Below are positions 2,066 to 25,050 of a DNA stretch of 64,000 bases, piece by piece. This DNA comes from a phage. Below the pieces are notes generated by a model. The model worked only from the letters and a program-made list of their open reading frames with translations, did not search any database and was not told the origin of the DNA. The stretch's first letter is position 1. Each line of letters opens with the position of its first letter. The stretch lies in NCBI GenBank assembly GCA_025832235.1, contig GCA_025832235.1_3649.1. The stretch is one strand, 5' to 3'. Position numbers and translations under genes: made by a program.

Positions 2066-2362
2066 ATGAAACTTTTTGAGTGGTTTAAAAAGTTTAAATA
2101 TAAAGCTGTAGCCATCGTGCCGTGGTCCATTCAGTGGGTTGATGAAGGTGGTCTACCGATACCTGGTGACAAAGATACTGGGTACTGGATTATGATGGAG
2201 AACGGGTTTGGAAAGCGAAAGTATACGTGCACAAACTCTACTCGATCTGCACTTAATAGAGTGCCTGGTTACAAACTTATGGTTGTGTGGAAAATGTCAG
2301 GCGTGCCTCCAGCCAATGCTCAATTTCTTACTGACAATCCTACCACGGTAGAGGGAGATTGA
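2066..2362 (+). CDS. hypothetical protein
   Basis: ORF track. Confidence 0.55.
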   Translation: MKLFEWFKKFKYKAVAIVPWSIQWVDEGGLPIPGDKDTGYWIMMENGFGKRKYTCTNSTRSALNRVPGYKLMVVWKMSGVPPANAQFLTDNPTTVEGD

Positions 2363-2364
2363 TA

Positions 2365-2646
2365 ATGAAAAAGATTAACAGTAGTGAAGTCGAGTTTAAA
2401 CTTGTCGGAAAAGGCACTTACTGGGAAGTTCGTCAAAAGGTATATTTGTTCGGTCTTATTCCTTACTGGTCTAAATTCTACTGGGGAGCTAACGAGTGGG
2501 GAAGATACGCCACCAAATCAATGGCACTTATTGGTATAGCAGAGTACATTGCAGCCAGAGATAGGGTTGGAGACACTTATTACTATACTGCGGACGATAT
2601 TCGTAACAGTGTTTACGTCCCACAACCACCTGATGGAGACCGTTGA
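2365..2646 (+). CDS. hypothetical protein
   Basis: ORF track 2359..2646 (TTG); ATG at 2365 is 7 nt after GAGGGAG. Confidence 0.55.
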   Translation: MKKINSSEVEFKLVGKGTYWEVRQKVYLFGLIPYWSKFYWGANEWGRYATKSMALIGIAEYIAARDRVGDTYYYTADDIRNSVYVPQPPDGDR

Positions 2647-9723: not shown

Positions 9724-11220
9724 CACACAATATTAGCTGCCCGGCTAAAGTGCTGGAAGCACCTATAACACATCTTTCAACTAAATTTCCTACCACCACA
9801 ATCACTTACCTCCCATACATGACTGTTTGCTTGTTTAGTGAGCAGTCATGCCTTGACATTCTTGCCTATCCTGATAAAATTAAGTTCTTCTCTTTTCTTT
9901 TACCGAGTAATTCGGGTTTTCTGTTCTCTTCGGTTTGAAGGGGTATGGAGATACACCTGAGTGAACAGGGTGAACAACCGAACCATTGGCTATGGCATTA
10001 GCATGGCGAAGCGGACGGGTGACGAAAGAGGGGCCGGAGGACACCAGTCACTGCCATATGATATATGGGTGATAACCTGAAGAGTCTGAATAAGTGTTTA
10101 AGTACCAGTCAGAGGAAAAGGTGAATGGTAGCCGAAGGGGGAGGGGGGTTTCTTGTATCTTTAATTTGTATATTATGTATACACTTGTAAACCAATTTCA
10201 TCTGAATCTGTTTACCACACAAAGTGGATAGAGACAAATATTACCTATTAAACTTGAATTATTTATAGAAAATACCACAACACCACTTAAGTCTTTGATT
10301 TTACACACAAATCTTACAGATATTCAACCTCCATATTTAACATACCTGTAACATATTCCATACTCTACCTGTCTGATCAATCTACCCAACCACATCCTTC
10401 ATATTTTCCCTGTCTGTACCACCCCTGCCCCGCCGGGAGTCCCGTCATATCTGGCTTTCCAGCAAATATCACACCCACAAATATCATTGCCTGAAGAGGG
10501 TTTCATCCCATAATACATGCCTTACCTGAAGAGCGCTTCATACACCACGTAAATTTTTTAATTGACCTGCAATTTTCCCGTCATGACCCCCTGCCCCGCC
10601 GGAGAGGTTGGCTTTTCCCACACAGACCTGAAGAGTCAGCCAGAAATATCTGAACAGGCCCAATTCTACCACGATTTTGACCTGACCTACAGGAGTGCTG
10701 CCAGGCGGACGAAATGGGAATACTTCTCATTCTTATAACAATTCTCAAATATCAAGGCAGTGAGGCAAATTAATAGGCTAGGCCGTTCACACAGTGGCAC
10801 AACATTTGCAATCTATTTTGTGTGGGGGAATGAGAATACATATCATTGTGAGAACCATTATCATTACGGGCAATTTAACATAATACCCATTATGCGCACC
10901 ACTGGCGATACATACAGGGATTGATAACATGAGTTACTGTTTACGCATATAACAATTATATTTATTACTATTTGTGTGGGATATAGTTAGCAGCCGATAG
11001 ATTAGATATTGACCTGCGGACTTCTGACCGTCTAGACGTCTAAACGCCCACACAGCAAGGGTTATACATACATCGCTGAATGTAAACAGGGCCGCAAAAA
11101 TGCTACCATACCAGTTTGTAAATTTTCAATGCAGCACTTGACAAAGAGGAGAAAAACTTGTCTGACACCTTATACACTTTCGATACAATAACGACTGTTA
11201 TTATTTCATGTTTCACTGTT

Positions 11221-11295
11221 CACGTATAGATTGTTCCCGCATAGACTGTTTACGCCTGGATAGTTTACACCTTGACAGTTTACGCATAGATGATA
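11221..11295. repeat. five tandem 15-bp iteron-like repeats (consensus NNCGCATAGAcTGTT)
   Basis: cacgtatagattgtt / cccgcatagactgtt / tacgcctggatagtt / tacaccttgacagtt / tacgcatagatgata in perfect 15-bp register. Confidence 0.6.
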
Positions 11296-11297
11296 AG

Positions 11298-11544
11298 CCA
11301 TGCCATTCGTTTGCATGAAAACAATTAGCAAGTTAACAATTAACAAGTTAATAATATATGACATAATATAAAAGCAGGGCAACTATTATTAGATCTATAG
11401 TTGCCTTGCTTATTATGTCATGATTAACTGAATATAAGGCAACTATGATCTGATTAATAGATTGCAGACAAACTATCACGGGGGTGATGGTTACTGCTTT
11501 TATATTATGTCGCGACTCCGTCGCGCCATGCCATTCGTTTGCAT
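11298..11544. repeat. 19-bp direct repeat CCATGCCATTCGTTTGCAT (11298-11316 and 11526-11544) bracketing an 18-bp inverted repeat
   Basis: Exact direct repeat; inverted arms GACATAATATAAAAGCAG (11360-11377) and CTGCTTTTATATTATGTC (11494-11511); inner palindrome GGCAACTAT/ATAGTTGCC (11378-11405). Confidence 0.55.
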
Positions 11545-12170
11545 AGTTGCCTTATTGTTACAGGTAAAACAATTACATTGTTAACTATTTCTTATCTTTC
11601 TCTTAGTCATCTAATGATTCCAGTCAGTATAGTTATGTGCAGTAAACATTAGACGACTAAAGATTTCTCTGATTATAGTAACCTATCGTGACAATTTCGA
11701 ACTGTTTACGAAAAATGTTGACACCTGGGCAGGTTTATGTTATGCAGTTTGTACGAATAATTATTTTGTACAGGTATTGACTATTCCGTTATTCTGTGGT
11801 TGGAATAAATACTTTGCAGGCTATAGAATGGTGATCGTACGTGGATTCTGAGATCTGTCGGCTATAGTTACACCCGATTTTTCACGTAGGACACGCTTTT
11901 TGGTTTGTGTAAGTGTATGACTTATAAGGGTTTTTAATTGTTGACAGTATACTGAAGATGTGCATCAGGTTAAATTTTGTGCAATAGCTGCATTACGTGC
12001 AATTTTGGGAGAGAAAACGGGTAAAAATAGCACCGCTACCACACAATGAAAGGTTATGCAATAGCTATTTTACATGTATATTTGTACAGTGTGCGGGATT
12101 GATGGCTCGTCAATTATTCCACTTGTCAGGTAGGGCCGTTTATGGTAGGAAAAGAGCAAACAAAAAGAAA

Positions 12171-12185
12171 GGGGCCTAAGCCCCT
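12171..12185 (-). terminator. rho-independent terminator ending the leftward unit
   Basis: GGGGC-CTAA-GCCCC stem-loop; on the minus strand it is followed by a U-rich tract; just downstream of stop of 12199..12462. Confidence 0.55.
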
Positions 12186-12198
12186 TGATAATGTTGTA

Positions 12199-12462
12199 TT
12201 ATTTGTTGCTCATCCAGTTTTCCCAAGCTGCCTGATAATCTGCCTCACTGCGGCGGATCTCTTCTTGTTCTTCAAGCCGGATCTCTTCTTCCAGGTACCC
12301 AAGGATGTCGGATTTTTTGGTCTGGCGTAACATCCAATCATCTTTTTTACGAGTAAAGATCTTGTACGCTTTCTCGCAAACCTCTTTTTTACTACCTTTT
12401 TGTACTTCAAGAACTTTGTAGGCCATGTACTGAACTAGTTTGAGCTGATCAAGACGTTTCAT
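12199..12462 (-). CDS. hypothetical protein
   Basis: ORF track; SD AAGAGG before ATG. Confidence 0.55.
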   Translation of the reverse strand: MKRLDQLKLVQYMAYKVLEVQKGSKKEVCEKAYKIFTRKKDDWMLRQTKKSDILGYLEEEIRLEEQEEIRRSEADYQAAWENWMSNK

Positions 12463-12877: not shown

Positions 12878-12902
12878 CGGTTTTTATAGTTCTTATATGA
12901 CA

Positions 12903-12945
12903 GGCAGGCCCGGTGATTGTCTCCACCCGTCGCCAGGTGCCTGCC
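12903..12945. repeat. GC-rich element copy C: GGCAGGC...GAGACAATCACCGGG...GCCTGCC (7-bp terminal inverted repeat)
   Basis: Reverse-complement matches copies at 21536-21571 and 21688-21716. Confidence 0.5.
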
Positions 12946-13005
12946 GTGTAATAAGTATAACAAAAAACAGGACCATAGCAAGCCCTGTTTTGTAGTTTAT
13001 AAATA

Positions 13006-18958: not shown

Positions 18959-19204
18959 TTATTTGACGATACCGACAAAACAGATCCCGCCTTCCCCTAT
19001 ATAGGCGATATCGGTAATTTGATAATTTGTCAAGATCCGCGTGTTCAGATCATTAATAAAATCGGTCATCGCGTTGGTGTAGTTGTCTTCCGTGTCTAAG
19101 GCATAATCCCAGGTGTAAACCTTTTTACGTCCGAAGCCTTTTACCATGATACGGGCGCTTTTGGTGTTGGTAGGGGCATAATATTTGGTAATTAGTGCGG
19201 CCAT
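18959..19204 (-). CDS. hypothetical protein
   Basis: ORF track; SD GAGGAG. Confidence 0.55.
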   Translation of the reverse strand: MAALITKYYAPTNTKSARIMVKGFGRKKVYTWDYALDTEDNYTNAMTDFINDLNTRILTNYQITDIAYIGEGGICFVGIVK

Positions 19205-19247
19205 TGTTTTAACTCCTCTGTATTAGTTCAGTGTTAACAGTGTAAAG

Positions 19248-19292
19248 TTTACTTTATTGATGGCCCTGGAGTCAAGGCCATCTAAAAATAAA
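19248..19292 (-). promoter_or_regulatory. conserved 45-bp element, copy 2 (hairpin with TTGACT in loop + TAAACT)
   Basis: Immediately downstream of stop of 19294..19635 and about 45 nt upstream of 18959..19204 start. Confidence 0.5.
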
Positions 19293-19293
19293 T

Positions 19294-19635
19294 TTACTCG
19301 TTTTCTTCCAGTTCTGCAAGCTCTTCTTTCACTTCTTCAAGCTCTGTTTGCAATTCCTGGTATTCTTCATCGTCCTCAATATCCAGGCTGTCGATGTAGT
19401 CGCTAAATCCGCAGCGGTAAGCGATAGGATCTAACTCCTTGAGGATACGCGACGGAAGAAAAGAAATGTTTCCGATCATAATTTCGCCATAGATCTCGTC
19501 TAACCATTCATCATAGTTTTCGTCGTACTTGTCCTCGTCGATTTCAAAATTATCGATCTTGTTCTCAAGGTCTGCGATCTGTTTTTTCAGCGCGGCGATC
19601 TGCATGGCTTTTTCTGTGGCGGTCATAGTAGTCAT
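19294..19635 (-). CDS. hypothetical highly acidic protein
   Basis: ORF track; about 30% Asp+Glu with acidic C-terminal tail; own promoter/hairpin. Confidence 0.55.
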   Translation of the reverse strand: MTTMTATEKAMQIAALKKQIADLENKIDNFEIDEDKYDENYDEWLDEIYGEIMIGNISFLPSRILKELDPIAYRCGFSDYIDSLDIEDDEEYQELQTELEEVKEELAELEENE

Positions 19636-19660
19636 AGTGTTTTCTCCTTTTGTGTGCTTT

Positions 19661-19673
19661 GGGAAGTTTTCCC
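19661..19673 (-). promoter_or_regulatory. 5'-UTR stem-loop (GGGAA-3-TTCCC)
   Basis: Same hairpin family. Confidence 0.45.
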
Positions 19674-19686
19674 GTTTACGTGTTTA

Positions 19687-19714
19687 AGTATACTGATTTA
19701 AGTTAGCTTGTCAA
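19687..19714 (-). promoter_or_regulatory. sigma70-like promoter (TTGACA-N16-TATACT)
   Basis: Plus-strand TGTCAA 19709-19714 and AGTATA 19687-19692. Confidence 0.55.
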
Positions 19715-19834
19715 TTAAAAGTTTAAGAAAAATTTTGCTACACCGTTGGCACTACCCATCAACATTTGCGCCAGGATGTAACCAATGATGCAAACGATAA
19801 TAGTTACCTTTGTGTGCTGGCGTGTAGTACTCAT
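19715..19834 (-). CDS. small hydrophobic peptide (39 aa)
   Basis: Hand-translated MSTTRQHTKVTIIVCIIGYILAQMLMGSANGVAKFFLNF; SD AAGGGGG; preceded by element copy 3. Confidence 0.4.
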   Translation of the reverse strand: MSTTRQHTKVTIIVCIIGYILAQMLMGSANGVAKFFLNF

Positions 19835-19867
19835 CTTTAAGCCCCCTTTCCGCTCAACTGTGGTTAG

Positions 19868-19912
19868 TTTACTTTATTGATGGCCCTGGAGTCAAGGCCA
19901 TCTAAAAATAAA
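19868..19912 (-). promoter_or_regulatory. conserved 45-bp element, copy 3
   Basis: Directly downstream of stop of 19914..20309. Confidence 0.5.
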
Positions 19913-19913
19913 C

Positions 19914-20309
19914 TCAGTAAGTTTTCAGTACTTTCCCGTCCAACCTGTCTAACTGAATCTCAATAGCTGCAGAAAACCTATTGTAAACCACATCGCCCAG
20001 GGAGTCCAGCCAATCTATGACGTTATACACCTGCTCTTTATTCTTGCAAGTCCGGATCCGTTTCATTACGTAAGACGGATCAATATTAGCGCTCTCGTTG
20101 TTGTGGTCATGCGCCTGGCCTGCTGCGCTAGTTATAGATTTTACAACCACCTGAAAGGGCTTTAAGGTGCCTTTTGCGTTCATCTCACGCGCTTTCGCGG
20201 CGCGGTTGTTGTATGTTACACAACGGCGGCAAATGTTGACCAAATGCATATCAATAATTTTTTCATCGTTTGCCAGTTCGTTCATGATGCGGCGTACGTT
20301 CTTATTCAT
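19914..20309 (-). CDS. hypothetical protein
   Basis: ORF track; SD AGGAAAAAAG. Confidence 0.55.
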   Translation of the reverse strand: MNKNVRRIMNELANDEKIIDMHLVNICRRCVTYNNRAAKAREMNAKGTLKPFQVVVKSITSAAGQAHDHNNESANIDPSYVMKRIRTCKNKEQVYNVIDWLDSLGDVVYNRFSAAIEIQLDRLDGKVLKTY

Positions 20310-20329
20310 GATCTTTTTTCCTTTGTGTT

Positions 20330-20348
20330 GGCGGGAAACATTCCCGCC
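20330..20348 (-). promoter_or_regulatory. 5'-UTR stem-loop (GGCGGGAA-3-TTCCCGCC)
   Basis: Same stem as 17824-17842 with a different loop. Confidence 0.5.
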
Positions 20349-20358
20349 TTTTGTGTAT

Positions 20359-20386
20359 AGTTTACTTGAATTTTGCAGCGTGTCAA
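20359..20386 (-). promoter_or_regulatory. sigma70-like promoter (TTGACA-N16-TAAACT) abutting an A18 tract
   Basis: Plus-strand TGTCAA 20381-20386; homopolymer immediately upstream on the minus strand. Confidence 0.5.
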
Positions 20387-20389
20387 TAA

Positions 20390-20407
20390 TTTTTTTTTTT
20401 TTTTTTT
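20390..20407. repeat. 18-nt homopolymer (T on plus, A on minus strand)
   Basis: Uninterrupted T run; overlaps stop codon of 20406..20804. Confidence 0.7.
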
Positions 20408-20804
20408 ATTCGTGGGCACATGTTACAATGTGCTTTTTATATCCCAGGCGGTCAGCAAGTGCCGACAAAAACTCTTCTTCGTAGATCCAGCCGTCGGCAG
20501 TGATCCCCATAGCATTTAATGCGCTCTCAAGTGCTGCGTTAGCTTTATCATAACCGTGACCGCTCGCCTTGCCGCCAGTATAGCCGTACTTATTGTTCTT
20601 GTTGTCGTGTATCCAAAAAACGCAGTAGTGAGTGTTCCCACTGGCGGCGGCATAATACCGGATCTCAGCTACTTCGTGCAAATTATTGTCATCGTCCAGG
20701 CCCACCAGATTATAAGCCTTATAAAATCCACGATCACGGCGGCAGTTCTTGACATCAGAAAAAGAAAAGTCCGCATTGTCAAAATTAAAGGTAGTGGTTT
20801 TCAT
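20406..20804 (-). CDS. hypothetical protein
   Basis: ORF track. Confidence 0.55.
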   Translation of the reverse strand: MKTTTFNFDNADFSFSDVKNCRRDRGFYKAYNLVGLDDDNNLHEVAEIRYYAAASGNTHYCVFWIHDNKNNKYGYTGGKASGHGYDKANAALESALNAMGITADGWIYEEEFLSALADRLGYKKHIVTCAHE

Positions 20805-20868
20805 GATTTTATCCTCTTAGTGTTTTTTGTGCTTTTAGTGTATTTTGTGTCAGGCTATATGTCAATAC

Positions 20869-21066
20869 TTATTTTTTATTAAACCAGTGGTTGATCTGGC
20901 CTTTTGTCAGGGCGCAACGATTAAGCTGTTGCAGGGTATAGCTATGACCGCGACGAAATTTATAAAGGCCTTGCCCGTTGTTGATGGTTACATCCGCCCG
21001 GCAAATCACTTGATTGGTGACCACCTGGCGAGTGTTGCGACGTGCTTTGATTCCGTATGCGTTCAT
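20869..21066 (-). CDS. hypothetical protein
   Basis: ORF track; SD GAGAGGACAAG. Confidence 0.45.
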   Translation of the reverse strand: MNAYGIKARRNTRQVVTNQVICRADVTINNGQGLYKFRRGHSYTLQQLNRCALTKGQINHWFNKK

Positions 21067-21144
21067 GATTTCTTGTCCTCTCTGTTAATTAGTGGGGTGT
21101 TGTTCACCTTGCGAGAATAAGAATAACAAGAACTGTCCGAGCTG

Positions 21145-21327
21145 TCAACCATTAGTTAAAATTATTTTTTGGGTAGAATTCTCCAGCCGCCGCCCCTGCC
21201 AGGTTAACCACCGTTTTTCGTACTCTTCTTTATGTTCCAACGCTCCCGCCATAGCCTTTTCAACCAGGGCGATAGCCTCAGCGTCATTAATCGCTACATT
21301 TCCCAGGTGAGTAGCATTACCTTTCAT
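21145..21327 (-). CDS. hypothetical protein
   Basis: ORF track; SD GAGGAGG. Confidence 0.4.
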   Translation of the reverse strand: MKGNATHLGNVAINDAEAIALVEKAMAGALEHKEEYEKRWLTWQGRRLENSTQKIILTNG

Positions 21328-21535
21328 TTTTGTACCTCCTCTTCAATTGTTACCTATCCTATAGCATAGGCCCACCAGGTTTGCAAGCCTTCATTCTCTC
21401 CTACCTGGTCAGTTAGGCCCTGCCAGGCTGGCCCCGCCAGGTTGCAGCGGTCAGCGCATCAGGTTAGAAATTTTTTTTTTTGAAAAGTGTTGACAGCGGC
21501 CCCGCCAGGTGGCAAAATATACCTATCGAAAGGAC

Positions 21536-21716
21536 GGCAGGCACCGGTGACGGGGGAGACAACCACCGGGGATGGGCGCTGCATAAAATGAGAACGGTTA
21601 TCATTATCATTTAAAAATTTATGCAAAAAAAAAAATCCTTGCTTTCTTTGTCCTGTGTGATACTATAATAACAAGCCGGGGCAACAGGGGCCGGGAGACA
21701 ATCACCGGGCCTGCCC
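21536..21716. repeat. GC-rich element copies A (21536-21571) and B (21688-21716), each followed by a conserved AT-rich tail
   Basis: Shared core GGGAGACAA(C/T)CACCGGG; third inverted copy at 12903-12945. Confidence 0.5.
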
Positions 21717-21957
21717 GTTATTCTGCAAACGAGAATGATTATCATTCAAAATTCTAAATGAGAACTCCTCGCATTTAATAAATTTAATTAGCATGCTAAT
21801 TACCTTCCGTAACAATCTCCTATAAAATAGTGCCCCATAAAATATTCCCATATAGAAATTTTAAAAATCCATTTCTGAAAACGAAAAATCGATTTCGTCC
21901 CCAAAAATTTCAGGTCGAGAGCTGGAACGATTTCCAGAAAATCCGATTCAGAAAACG

Positions 21958-22039
21958 AAAAACAGATCGAGTACTGAGAAATTTGTCGAGAAAAATTTTC
22001 AGAAAATCAGGTCTTTGAAATGAAAAACAGATCGAGTAC
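21958..22039. repeat. 17-bp perfect direct repeat AAAAACAGATCGAGTAC (21958-21974 and 22023-22039)
   Basis: Exact repeats 65 bp apart; related GAAAACGAAAAATCGAT at 21877-21893. Confidence 0.55.
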
Positions 22040-22351
22040 CGAAAGAGATGTGCCGAAACTTTCTGATAATAATGGACTTATTGTTATAAAAGGTCAGAGG
22101 TAAGCTGGGAAAGTTCTGGTAGAAGGGTGAGAGTATGTGCGGAAAATCTGGAATAGTGACTTAAAGTACGGTGCGAACGATAGAATGAGCAGCACATCTT
22201 ATCGTGCCTGTCTTGAAAAATCCATTTTAGTTTTCGATCCATTTTCTGATTTTCTAAGAATTTTAAAATATCTGGCCCGGTGAAATATCAAAAGGAGGAA
22301 ATCCATTTTAGAAATCCTCCTTACACTTGATATGCCAGGGATTTTCAAGTA

Positions 22352-22681
22352 TCAGCTGTCTTTGTTTTTAGGTTTGTACATGCGCAGAGGTATGGTCTTT
22401 GTAACATTCCATTTCCTCAACCCTTCCCAGCTCCAGTTGTGGGCGTGATACCCGGTTATGCATGCACTGCTGGCGTGATCATAAGCATAAGAGAACGCTA
22501 TGTGCACCAGGTGGGGCCAGTCCTTCCACGGCTGTGGACCGTAAGCCTTTCTCCAACACCGACACAAACTAATTGTCTCAAGAATAGGGAGAATAACAAT
22601 TCCATATACCACCACCAGAATGGTCAGTGCAATGATTGTCAGGAACACATACCCTGCAGTTGAAATGATGATCTCTGTCAT
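22352..22681 (-). CDS. hypothetical membrane protein
   Basis: ORF track; N-terminal TM-like ISTAGYVFLTIIALTILVVVYGIVILPIL. Confidence 0.5.
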   Translation of the reverse strand: MTEIIISTAGYVFLTIIALTILVVVYGIVILPILETISLCRCWRKAYGPQPWKDWPHLVHIAFSYAYDHASSACITGYHAHNWSWEGLRKWNVTKTIPLRMYKPKNKDS

Positions 22682-22875
22682 TTGTCGTCCCCTTTCTTAC
22701 GAATATAGATGTGAGAGCCTGCCTGTATATAAATTTCTCGACCATCTTCTGCAAAGATATGAAATACACGATCACCTTCGTACTCGATACGAGATATCTT
22801 CATAATGGTCTTTCCACCTGGGATGCGGATCTCGTCCCCCACAGCGATGTTCCATGCAGATTTAAGCTTAAACAT
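22678..22875 (-). CDS. hypothetical protein
   Basis: ORF track 22678..22941; ATG 22875 follows AGGAGGG. Confidence 0.5.
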   Translation of the reverse strand: MFKLKSAWNIAVGDEIRIPGGKTIMKISRIEYEGDRVFHIFAEDGREIYIQAGSHIYIRKKGDDK

Positions 22876-23113
22876 CCGCACCCTCCTTTGGGAGCTCGAA
22901 CTCTGGCATAGCCATATACGCCACAACAGGGTTGTAATCAAAGTAGAAATGACCGTTAATTATCCCAGTTTTGTGAGCATAGTCACCAGATCCTGCAAGA
23001 ACAACCTCGCAAGCTCCGAAATCTACATTGCCATCCTCATCAGCCATGGCTACGATATACTTTCCTAGAGGCATGTTTTTAACGCCGTCTACAAATGTCC
23101 ACCCTTTGTTCAT
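22868..23113 (-). CDS. hypothetical protein
   Basis: ORF track. Confidence 0.5.
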   Translation of the reverse strand: MNKGWTFVDGVKNMPLGKYIVAMADEDGNVDFGACEVVLAGSGDYAHKTGIINGHFYFDYNPVVAYMAMPEFELPKEGADV

Positions 23114-23133
23114 ACTTTATCTCCTGCACTTTC

Positions 23134-23466
23134 TTAAGGTAACCAGTAAACAATCTCGCCTTTCAGCTTCATGTCGTTTCCAACATAAATTTCCCAGCCA
23201 TCCATCTTAGCAACTGTAGGCCCAAAGTCATCCGCACCCCTTACCTCTTTCCAGGCTCCGTAGTCAGGTTGCCAGATATAGAATCCACCTTCTTTGTCCC
23301 ATGCTCCGTACACTACGTTTAACAGGTTTCCCATTGCAACAATGGTGGGCCGTGGGAATAATACATCTACAGATGCGCCACAATTTCGGGTATCTTTTAA
23401 GTTGCAATCCCAAAAGATGTCTGCCAGTGTGGCGGCGATAGCTTTACGTCTTTCCAATGTTACCAT
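23134..23466 (-). CDS. hypothetical protein
   Basis: ORF track. Confidence 0.5.
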   Translation of the reverse strand: MVTLERRKAIAATLADIFWDCNLKDTRNCGASVDVLFPRPTIVAMGNLLNVVYGAWDKEGGFYIWQPDYGAWKEVRGADDFGPTVAKMDGWEIYVGNDMKLKGEIVYWLP

Positions 23467-23476
23467 GGCACGATAC

Positions 23477-23668
23477 TCACTTGTTGTTAATAAGTTCTAA
23501 AACTTTCTGTCTTACTTTGTCAAGGTCTGTTGATTCAAAAACTGTGCGATATCCCCAACTTTGCCCATAGGAGTGACTGCAATCTCCGTAGCACCATTGC
23601 TCAATTTGATAGTATTCAAGGAAGGGGTGCTGTCTAACTATGATGCCATCCCGGTTAAAAATTACCAT
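23477..23668 (-). CDS. hypothetical protein
   Basis: ORF track. Confidence 0.45.
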   Translation of the reverse strand: MVIFNRDGIIVRQHPFLEYYQIEQWCYGDCSHSYGQSWGYRTVFESTDLDKVRQKVLELINNK

Positions 23669-23731
23669 AATACGTCGCTCTCTGTTAGTCTGTGCGTATA
23701 TTATACACTGTAGTTTTCAGATGTCAATCTT

Positions 23732-23983
23732 TTACAGGTTACTCCAGTATACTCGGCATTTACATTTCGGGCAATGAGGCTCTTTTATGTAATAACCATC
23801 AGTCTTTGGAACACTTTTTGGTGCAGTTTTAAGATTGTACCGAGTAAAACACCGGAAGCAGGTTACCTCTCCAACCTGTTGATCGTTTATCCACTCGCCA
23901 GAGTAAAGCTCTCTCTTGTTTCTCATAATTCTCTCCCAAATCCTCTGCAATCTTATACCAAAATCTCCAGCCAGAAAGCACAC
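23732..23983 (-). CDS. hypothetical protein with Cys-rich zinc-ribbon-like motifs
   Basis: ORF track; CFRCFTRY ... CPKCKC. Confidence 0.5.
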   Translation of the reverse strand: MCFLAGDFGIRLQRIWERIMRNKRELYSGEWINDQQVGEVTCFRCFTRYNLKTAPKSVPKTDGYYIKEPHCPKCKCRVYWSNL

Positions 23984-24176
23984 GGGAACACTTTGATGAT
24001 TGAATCTTTACCTGGTTCAGCAGTTCTTTTTCCGTAGGGTAGGTAGAAATACCCTCCTGCAGATTCGAACACAGCCCCTTCGGTTGTATCTATCACAGCC
24101 AGAATTAAGATTTTAGTCTCCATAGTGCTCCCTCTCTCAATCGTTGTGGTGACTATACCATCTCAAAAACCCGCTG

Positions 24177-24635
24177 TCAACACTTTTTGTACTCCACCAC
24201 GATAATATTCATATCAAAAGTGGCAAGGTTAATAACGTCCTCTACGTGCTCCCACTTCAAACCGCCTATGCCGCACCCGATCTTAGGGATGTAGAATGGT
24301 AAAGTCGATCCACTGAATACCTCATTGACTAGCTCAAAGCCTTTCAGGATTGAGAAATATTCAGCATTAGGTCCTGGGTAGAACTGAGTATACAGATTGA
24401 TTCCGTAGACAATACCTCTCGGAGATAAGTGCTCCCATCGGGAGAACGCACCCAGTTTACTTAGGCAACCGTGTCTGGTCTCTTTGTCAGCTGCCAATGC
24501 TTGAGGGAACTCACGGGCAATCTGTTTTGCTATCCCCTTGCCCATTGTGTGGAAGCAGTTACAACCGTGGATCAGGTGACCAGCACCGCTCTTAAAAAGG
24601 GAGATTAAATCTCCCTCTACAGTATCAATAATCAC
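24177..24635 (-). CDS. macro-domain protein (ADP-ribose binding / ADP-ribosyl hydrolase family)
   Basis: HLIHGCNCFHTMGKGIAKQIA and IPKIGCGIGGL parallel the two glycine-rich ADP-ribose-binding motifs of macro domains such as E. coli YmdB; probable GTG start at 24635 (SD GAGGAG) rather than track start 24734. Confidence 0.65.
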   Translation of the reverse strand: MIIDTVEGDLISLFKSGAGHLIHGCNCFHTMGKGIAKQIAREFPQALAADKETRHGCLSKLGAFSRWEHLSPRGIVYGINLYTQFYPGPNAEYFSILKGFELVNEVFSGSTLPFYIPKIGCGIGGLKWEHVEDVINLATFDMNIIVVEYKKC

Positions 24636-25050
24636 GGTATGCCAGCTCCTCTTCCGCAATTTCAAAAAACTCAGTCCAGCACTGTGGCATATTGGAGTTA
24701 CCGAAGTGGCTTTCATAGTAAAGGTTCTCACCACTTGGAAGATAGAAATCTGTTACCTCATAGAATCCACAATCGTCGCACTCGCCTTCTTCAAACTTAG
24801 CCTCAACCTTAATACCGAGGAAGGTGAAAAGTTTATGGATATCTTCAGTTTCGAACTCCCAGTGAATGTTGTTTTCCGCATCGGTGTAGAACTGGATCAG
24901 CAGACCATTGTCCAGTTTACCAAAATACTCTGTGAAGTAACTTCCTTCCCAGAAATCTTTATGACAAATAATATCCATGCGTTTGCCCATAATAATGGTG
25001 TGAGCGTTTTGGGCATCGTCACGAATCAGTTTTGGCATTTCATAGATCAT
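24625..25050 (-). CDS. hypothetical protein
   Basis: ORF track; coupled to macro-domain gene. Confidence 0.5.
   Translation of the reverse strand: MIYEMPKLIRDDAQNAHTIIMGKRMDIICHKDFWEGSYFTEYFGKLDNGLLIQFYTDAENNIHWEFETEDIHKLFTFLGIKVEAKFEEGECDDCGFYEVTDFYLPSGENLYYESHFGNSNMPQCWTEFFEIAEEELAYRDY

Follow-up and report, generated by a model that had tools for sequence, protein, structure and literature searches.

A conserved non-coding control region of rV5-like phages and its candidacy as a replication origin

The locus and its setting

What acts from a kilobase of phage DNA without credible open reading frames (ORFs) that is embedded in a long minus-strand array of small early genes? The question is raised by positions 21330-22350, hereafter the island, of a 64-kb stretch of DNA (contig GCA_025832235.1_3649.1; the window is this whole stretch). 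The window belongs to a Vequintavirus, an rV5-like myovirus: 122 phage records align with its region 21100-22500 at 80-95% identity, the closest being WalterGehring (93%). The genes on either side of the island (21145-21327 and 22352-22681) both lie on the minus strand. The rV5 equivalent of the island is found at ~116.6-117.7 kb, where the rV5 authors predicted no promoters; they could not define the replication origin either (PMC3606486). A preliminary description of the sequence had proposed that it is not coding DNA but a regulatory or non-coding RNA (ncRNA) locus, or a second origin, and this proposal is supported by the promoters, hairpin covariation, operator-like palindromes, iterons and transposon data presented here. 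We conclude that rV5-like phages have in the island a conserved control region that is non-coding and acts in cis. That the island is a replication origin activated or primed by transcription is a further step, which we infer and whose chances we consider about even.

Absence of coding constraint

An alignment of 12 Vequintavirus genomes was used for all within-genus tests, variable columns being counted per codon position or per 50 nucleotides (nt). Three flanking coding sequences (CDSs) gave counts of 3:8:14, 20:13:53 and 5:8:31 over the three codon positions, whereas the profiles of the island ORFs were flat (9:5:9, 7:14:14 and 12:12:13). The flanking CDSs 20869-21066 and 22352-22681 are intact in 12/12 genomes; the third, read from a TTG start at 22941, meets an early stop in 6/12, and this TTG is therefore probably not the real start. 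Every island ORF is frameshifted, interrupted or start-less in some of the genomes, and neither an excess of third-position changes nor a frame kept intact in the relatives was found for these ORFs. Public annotations of the same kilobase conflict, listing from none to six ORFs that differ in position and strand. The flat counts and broken frames bear out the earlier view of ~1 kb without credible ORFs, and the island is confirmed as non-coding. Its positions 21480-22030 are conserved on a par with the neighbouring CDSs (4-13 variable columns per 50 nt).

Transposon insertions in phage Bas54

A 2025 preprint (HIDEN-SEQ) mapped transposon insertions in Bas54, that is, phage MaxBurger, which is 92% identical to the window at the island. 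Three Bas54 'genes' could be mapped exactly onto the island, with TA-site counts that agree with those of the preprint. The first, bas54_0101 (21800-21904), covers the AT-rich segment and the first of three direct repeats described below; insertions were found at 0/11 of its TA sites and it was classed as essential. The second, bas54_0102 (21464-21745), spans promoter P1, repeat unit 1, promoter P2 and repeat unit 2, took insertions at 5/15 sites with low reads and showed a strong fitness defect, and the third, bas54_0100 (21910-22056), which contains repeats 2 and 3, was hit at 1/3 sites and was not classified. In the neighbouring genes 86-100% of the TA sites were hit: 18/21 in bas54_0099 (22351-22681, non-essential), 12/14 in bas54_0103 (21152-21327, intermediate) and 13/13 in the next gene, bas54_0104 (non-essential). 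As none of the island ORFs passes the coding tests, what the phage needs here is most simply read as a non-coding element rather than a protein, and the island as required in cis in Bas54. The transposon data can thus be re-read: bas54_0101 and bas54_0102 are most likely not genes and overlap an essential non-coding element.

Promoters and the 5' hairpin of the transcript

Two predicted promoters of the island point rightwards, opposite to the flanking minus-strand genes. P1 (21490-21518, plus strand) consists of TTGACA, a 17-nt spacer and (TGg)CAAAAT, and matched 10/12 positions with a TG extension in the promoter scan; its hexamers are retained in the 12 genomes, and it fits the AAAA-N-TGTTGAC early-promoter class of this phage group (PMC7344957). 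P2 (21639-21666, plus strand) reads TTGCTT, a 16-nt spacer and (TGa)TACTAT. All related genera examined have a promoter at the position of P2 relative to the hairpin that follows it, with kept hexamers and diverged spacers; the pairs found at equal distance from the hairpin are TTGATC/TATTAT, TTGACC/GATAAT, TTGCAA/TATATT, TTGACA/TATTAT and TTGACT/TATTCT. A broad search of the literature found no transcriptome of an rV5-like phage.

A T11 tract (21471-21481, plus strand) lies directly upstream of the -35 box of P1 and an A11 tract (21625-21635, plus strand) upstream of that of P2, both resembling UP elements. The tracts had been noted before and are present, but their lengths are polymorphic, ranging over T7-T15 and A6-A7 in relatives, and their apparent relation as an inverted repeat is therefore not meaningful and was discarded. 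The A11 tract is A6 in ten relatives and A7 in one, and its extra 5 nt frameshift a 92-codon ORF (window 21464-21745) annotated in several records (bas54_0102, APCEc02_037 and JES2013 gp185). Two explanations offer themselves, an ORF without meaning or a sequencing error in the homopolymer.

The two ~80-bp repeats of the preliminary description were recovered as units with GC-rich cores at 21554-21570 and 21693-21709 that are 94% identical. They make up a duplicated promoter-plus-hairpin module, P1 with unit 1 and P2 with unit 2, in which the hairpin following each promoter holds the invariant sequence GAGACAAnCACC. Copy 1 of the hairpin (21537-21582, plus strand), recognised by its fold and repeat family, has GGGAGACAACCACCGGG in its apical part. 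Copy 2 (21677-21722, plus strand) carries GGGAGACAATCACCGGG and is the segment conserved across genera, as seen by cross-genus blastn, folds and covariation.

The base helix, in which the first bases of the predicted transcript pair with bases just before ATTCTG, was tested on 14 sequences of other genera; no register could be established for the inner helix. Standard pairs filled 95% of the cells, compared to 20-63% when the partner columns were slid, and the pairs covary, one of them being AU in 5 sequences, GC in 5 and GU in 3, and another GC or GU in 7 each. On the other strand the G-U pairs would read A-C and not pair; as the promoters are conserved too, the covariation says that it is the plus-strand RNA that would form the hairpin. 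For the same reason, and as their tails are not U-rich in other genera, the hairpins were rejected as minus-strand terminators. The folding z-scores of copies 1 and 2 are unremarkable (-1.1 and -1.7), and RNAalifold returned no structure for a consensus of 20 hairpin copies because the 5' arms failed to align across lineages. No Rfam covariance model matched at E <= 1 in 19000-25000, and none relevant did so in relatives. The search for RNA structure and covariance suggested in the preliminary description thus gave covariation in the base helix but no Rfam family.

A third promoter-plus-hairpin copy is present on the minus strand at 12890-12975, where TTGCTA, a 16-nt spacer and TATACT are followed by GGCAGGC...GGAGACAATCACCGGGCCTGCC, with a significant fold (z = -3.9). 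This copy is in sense orientation, has no Fur-like box and is directed toward the terminus region. In a Seunavirus-like contig (L158), the corresponding inverted copy lies ~8 kb from the main module and has a box.

AT-rich segment and direct repeats

P1 and P2 are directed into an AT-rich segment resembling an unwinding element (21773-21872; no strand is assigned to this segment or to the repeats, palindromes, patch and spacer below), an arrangement that is conserved across genera. The segment is among the three least stable 100-bp duplexes of the window, whose most AT-rich 300 bp are 21727-22027, and it overlaps the stretch that takes no transposon insertions in Bas54.

A family of three direct repeats of 65-74 bp with a GATCGAG core, here called iterons, occupies 21851-22054. 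Their cores, AAAATCC(A/G)nTTCnGAAAAnGAAAAAC(A)GATCGAGTAC, are located at ~21862-21899, 21936-21975 and 22001-22040. An exact direct repeat of 17 bp had been reported from this part; it exists but measures 18 bp (GAAAAACAGATCGAGTAC, at 21957 and 22022), and it is the core of the three iterons. The related AAATCCATTT motifs described with it are also present. The iterons are spaced and 62-71% alike, with a short palindrome, (T)CGATCGA, in their cores. Neither strand of the iteron region folds significantly (z = -0.16 and -0.79), which fits recognition at the DNA level.

Fur-type palindromes

By sequence, the AT-rich tails of the ~80-bp units (21586-21618 and 21727-21759) are palindromes of Fur-box type. 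Scoring was against the 19-bp Fur palindrome AATGAnAATnATTnTCATT at 18 positions, G/T and C/A alternatives being allowed. Palindromes 1a and 1b (AATGAGAACGGTTATCATT and an overlapping neighbour, 21587-21611) match at 16/18 and 15/18, palindrome 2 (AACGAGAATGATTATCATT, from 21728) at 17/18, and a weaker third box (21757-21775) at 14/18. Sites scoring at least 15/18 in the 64 kb are found only at 21587, 21593 and 21728 and at 10713, 10829 and 10847, compared with 0.25 expected per 64 kb of shuffled sequence. The score was calibrated on 26 kb of the Escherichia coli K-12 genome around the enterobactin genes, where seven sites reached at least 14, six of them within the fepA-fes, fepD-entS and fepB-entC regions with scores of 14-15. 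As predicted Fur boxes, the phage sites, matched at 15-17/18, therefore outscore genuine E. coli Fur operators. In contrast to those operators, they lie 3' of plus-strand promoters and not over them, and they occur in a lytic phage, within two essential non-coding regions. It was unexpected that a strictly lytic phage should have Fur boxes of very high score in both of its essential non-coding regions.

The halves of the boxes vary (GAGAAT versus ATTATC) without compensation, which argues for a DNA site over an RNA stem. The boxes lie at ~+45 from the presumed start of P2 and overlap a weak minus-strand promoter in some genera only. They might serve as a roadblock at ~+45, as the operator of the facing weak promoter, or as the site of an architectural factor or decoy. 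A BLAST comparison of the box region with E. coli genomes was uninformative, the query being too short.

A 16-mer of the same type, GAGAATGATT(C/A)TCATT, was found in more than 120 unrelated viral contigs (IMG/VR loci L006-L125). Its flanks are non-random, with T at -1 in 92% of the matches and A-rich positions -4 to -2; 80% of the matches are perfect palindromes, and they are often tandem or just 3' of a consensus promoter. Within 300-500 bp of contig ends the 16-mer is enriched about threefold (20 observed versus 6.3 expected), whereas a control pattern showed no enrichment there (4 versus 3.8). Fur-type palindromes near the ends of many unrelated viral contigs were likewise unexpected. Taken together with the boxes of the window, these matches suggest a connection, open to direct testing, between host iron status and phage replication or packaging.

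The second ORF-poor region and the genome end

The other three high-scoring boxes lie in a second ORF-poor region of 2.4 kb (9773-12199), at the convergence of the plus- and minus-strand gene arrays. Korf et al. described distinct ends with a terminal redundancy of 458 bp in Vequintavirus EdH4 (PMC6563267). The EdH4 record begins and ends with the same 459 bp, which map to window 10704-11162 and so place the physical genome end within 9773-12199. The three boxes begin 9 bp inside this end, and short repeats of type CTGTTTACGCATAG occur around 11200-11300 and 11700. According to the HIDEN-SEQ text, the Bas54 equivalent of the region takes no insertions. The island itself is not the genome terminus, as the packaging cut lies ~11 kb away, and this leaves an origin as the best-fitting essential cis function.

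A layout shared with other genera

Beyond the genus, only ~21629-21790 can be aligned (distant blastn), with matches in Phapecoctavirus, Seunavirus, Mydovirus and Certrevirus and in phages of Serratia, Acinetobacter, Aeromonas, Cronobacter and Klebsiella. A comparison with related phages, which the preliminary description had recommended, showed that a common layout recurs in an ORF-free gap of ~0.4-1.4 kb in at least seven related genera. It begins with a sigma-70 promoter that is oriented opposite to the flanking genes and has kept hexamers and a variable spacer, and continues with a GC-rich hairpin containing GAGACAA(N)CACCG, with ATTCTGCAAAT, with one to five palindromes AATGAGAATnATTCTCATT ~29 bp apart and, in five other genera, with exactly three direct repeats at a spacing of 63-78 bp. 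The order promoter, hairpin, boxes and three repeats was found in the Serratia, Acinetobacter and Aeromonas relatives as well as in Seuna-, Certre-, Mydo- and Phapecoctavirus. The cores of the repeats, too, are homologous from genus to genus (AATACGATCTGGAAATTGAAAAACCGATCGAGACC in Certrevirus versus AATCCGATTCAGAAAACGAAAAACAGATCGAGTAC in the window).

Some elements of the other genera were noted besides. Just upstream of the hairpin module they have a second promoter-driven GC-rich element, GAAGAGGAAnCGCCACCCCACGGCG-AAAGGCGGGGCTAAC...GATCGCCGGTAG, which is absent from the window (L003 2385-2470, L004 2335-2430 and L005 ~2330-2420, minus strand as displayed) and may be an undescribed RNA. One pipeline labels it tRNA-Ile, a label to which ARAGORN and Rfam give no support. 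The island is preceded there by a small plus-strand gene with its own promoter (L003 2076-2342, L004 2097-2279, L255 1082-1291 and L257 1208-1402), one coding for a DUF7170 protein and the rest for PHROG families of unknown function, so that the plus-strand transcription unit is larger in those phages than in the window.

A tRNA remnant was considered and rejected. One record labels the segment homologous to the island as tRNA-Met plus tRNA-Ile; ARAGORN and the Rfam tRNA model find nothing there, and no cloverleaf was detected by either in the window or in loci L001-L005, while ARAGORN recovers the annotated tRNA-Tyr of Pectobacterium phage CB7. In Klebsiella phage K45PH128C2 (OY978796, locus L005 1878-2573), the annotated tRNA-Lys, tRNA-Ile and tRNA-Met were not recovered by ARAGORN, and the 'tRNA-Met' is the hairpin-plus-Fur-box module.

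A replication origin as the candidate function

The origin reading brings together the promoters directed into an unwinding element, the repeated sites on its flanks and a primase-helicase resembling T7 gp4, which is encoded by rV5 (PMC3606486). RNA polymerase starting from P1 or P2 would open the AT-rich segment or leave an RNA primer there, a putative iteron-binding protein would assemble the primase-helicase at this segment, and Fur or another palindrome-binding protein might modulate or shape the site. rV5-like phages are a large group of broad-host-range therapeutic candidates, for which the island provides a precise and testable origin candidate with named parts.

Comparable arrangements exist in other phages. 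The primary origin of T7 has an AT-rich segment behind the tandem promoters phi1.1A and phi1.1B, and oriF and oriG of T4 combine a middle promoter with an unwinding element and use an R-loop primer. Likewise, the two tandem promoters of the island would direct transcription into the most easily melted stretch of the region, in the early part of a phage with a T7-gp4-like primase-helicase. Unlike those origins, the island has promoters of the host sigma-70 type, a transcript that begins with a conserved hairpin, Fur-type palindromes, three long iterons and apparent essentiality. Iteron origins (lambda ori, P1 oriR, P4 ori/crr and those of plasmids) have repeats of 17-22 bp in helical phase. In the island, direct repeats similarly adjoin an AT-rich segment within an element required in cis, but their period of 63-78 bp is unusual for initiator-binding sites, their core is ~36 bp, and they are accompanied by neither DnaA or IHF boxes nor a recognised adjacent initiator gene.

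Several points weigh against an origin. The promoter-plus-AT-rich origins of T4 and T7 are individually dispensable, whereas the island looks essential. No match to the DnaA-box or IHF consensus was found in the island, and among the neighbouring proteins examined, all of which fall into families of unknown function, an iteron-binding initiator was not recognised. GC skew across the window tracks gene orientation, with no inflection at the island, and origin precedent is lacking for Fur-type boxes at ~+45 from a presumed start. The Bas54 data are per-ORF summary tables from the preprint, and the lethality of insertions in the island may have a polar or RNA-level cause. Finally, the region 9773-12199, also insertion-free and with short repeats, could hold the origin as well as the terminus.

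Alternative explanations

The first alternative is an essential or important ncRNA acting in trans, either as short hairpin RNAs or as a longer RNA through 21677-22060; it might be a regulator, an RNA-polymerase modifier of the put/nut type or an anti-defence decoy like the pseudo-ToxI of phage phiTE. We regard it as unlikely, though a real possibility. The conserved promoters, the covarying 5' hairpin with its invariant loop sequence, the sense-oriented third copy at 12890-12975 (z = -3.9) and the depletion of insertions in the transcribed part all speak for it, and a functional ncRNA locus is known in the rV5-like phage phiTE (PMC3475682). On the other hand, no Rfam family and no similarity to ToxI were found, no intrinsic terminator delimits a small RNA, neither strand of the iteron part folds significantly, and the boxes vary without the compensation that an RNA stem needs. 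The iterons, moreover, share as their core a DNA palindrome, (T)CGATCGA, whose three copies are separated by variable linkers, a pattern suggesting that a protein binds the DNA.

Two precedents for an RNA element can be compared with the island. The put sites of HK022 and the nut sites of lambda are promoter-proximal RNA elements, and the island likewise has a structured RNA with an invariant sequence directly 3' of early promoters, with copies at separate loci in opposite orientations (copies 1 and 2 versus copy 3). It differs from them in the lack of sequence similarity, Rfam match or identified boxA-like element. The pseudo-ToxI locus of phiTE is, like the island, a non-coding repeat locus of an rV5-like phage (PMC3475682), but the repeats of the island are not near-identical 36-mers in tandem: they are spaced and 62-71% alike. 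ToxI-like antitoxin repeats, suggested by phiTE, were accordingly dropped as a candidate: the island has no similarity to them, and the ToxI-like repeats of CB7 are elsewhere, in a tRNA region. These CB7 repeats (L126 2490-2600) are ~98% identical to the 36-nt ToxI unit and are embedded in an apparently disrupted tRNA gene beside tRNA-Tyr. ToxI-like sequences match 80 phage records from several families.

A broader and doubtful idea is that the Fur-type palindrome is a general phage landmark, Fur or a mimic having been co-opted to license or shape replication and packaging, with a put-like hairpin aiding read-through of protein-bound sites by RNA polymerase. It draws on the only two box clusters of the window marking its two insertion-intolerant non-coding regions, one just inside the physical genome end and the other placed between the promoter-hairpin modules and the candidate origin, and on the enrichment near contig ends.

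That the main function is linked to Fur itself appears improbable. The island would then be an iron-responsive switch on early genes, the boxes overlapping weak minus-strand promoters (TTGAAT, an 18-nt spacer and CAGAAT) that face P1 and P2, or a decoy titrating host Fur, so that iron uptake is derepressed as the phage genome amplifies. The boxes score 15-18/18, above the E. coli enterobactin operators, relatives have arrays of up to five boxes spaced at ~29 bp, the flanks ATTCTG and ATTCAA can be read as minus-strand -10 and -35 hexamers in several genera, and the palindrome recurs in the unrelated viral contigs, sometimes just 3' of a consensus promoter. However, Bas54 needed the island in LB although the genes on either side are dispensable, and a pure regulator of those genes would not be essential. 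The minus-strand hexamers are lost in Phapecoctavirus and in the Aeromonas relative, and a decoy would leave the iterons, hairpin and promoters unexplained.

The island could also be a packaging-related or other nucleoprotein assembly site, at which the small terminase subunit, together with a host factor, would bind the three repeats in the manner of lambda cosB or P1 pac. Such a site would suit three spaced repeats with a GATC-containing palindrome, an element essential in cis and the similar Fur-like boxes 9 bp inside the physical genome end. We consider it very improbable, as the EdH4 end and its 459-bp terminal repeat (window 10704-11162) are ~11 kb off, the island lies in the early region, distant from the late genes, and the insertion sensitivity of the promoter modules is unexpected for a packaging site.

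Least probable of all is that the island encodes small proteins (the equivalents of bas54_0100, bas54_0101 and bas54_0102), one of them essential: although the 34-codon ORF (21800-21904, minus strand) is open in 11/12 genomes and the 92-codon ORF in 10/12, and bas54_0101 was classed as essential by HIDEN-SEQ, the codon profiles are flat where a neighbouring gene gives 20:13:53, starts are TTG, GTG or absent, an internal stop and frameshifts occur, the 92-codon ORF is broken in the present window, the conserved half of the 34-codon ORF has zero synonymous changes, and conservation across genera tracks promoters, palindromes and repeats rather than reading frames.

Other features of the locus

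The tandem GGCCC(T/C)GCCAGG motifs reported in the preliminary description are present, as copies of GGCCCNGCCAGG(T) at 21192, 21369, 21416, 21430 and 21498, and the exact 12-mer GGCCCCGCCAGG occurs three times in the 64 kb compared with ~0.008 expected. The repeat family and a genome-wide motif scan define a GGCCC(N)GCCAGG(T) cluster at 21369-21514, a candidate operator between P1 and a divergent minus-strand promoter. Each copy contains a CCWGG site, of which the island has 12 (4.3 expected). The divergent promoter, of sigma-70 type, is that predicted for the minus-strand gene 21145-21327 (21358-21386, minus strand; TTGCAA, 17-nt spacer, TATAGG); its spacer holds one copy of the GGCCCACCAGG motif, and relatives show the same class, TTGCAA with a GC-rich CCWGG/GGCC spacer.

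To the right of the iterons, 22055-22215 is a fast-evolving spacer without detectable constraint (23-33 variable columns per 50 nt, counted over 22030-22220). It is followed at 22216-22275 by a conserved patch (22220-22280 by variable columns) with more copies of the AAATCCATTTT motif, identified by repeat analysis and the 12-genome alignment. The palindrome formerly counted as part of the island is present, with AGGAGGA at 22293-22299 and TCCTCCT at 22315-22321, but its loop is 15 nt and not 14, and from its sequence it is best read as the terminator of the neighbouring gene, outside the machinery of the island. This predicted intrinsic terminator of gene 22352-22681 (22282-22321, minus strand) lies 30 nt past the stop codon and consists of an 8-bp stem, AAGGAGGA/TCCTCCTT, and then UUUUGAUAUUU; the stem is kept in the 12 genomes, with one double change from G-C to A-U and G-U wobbles that form on the minus strand only.

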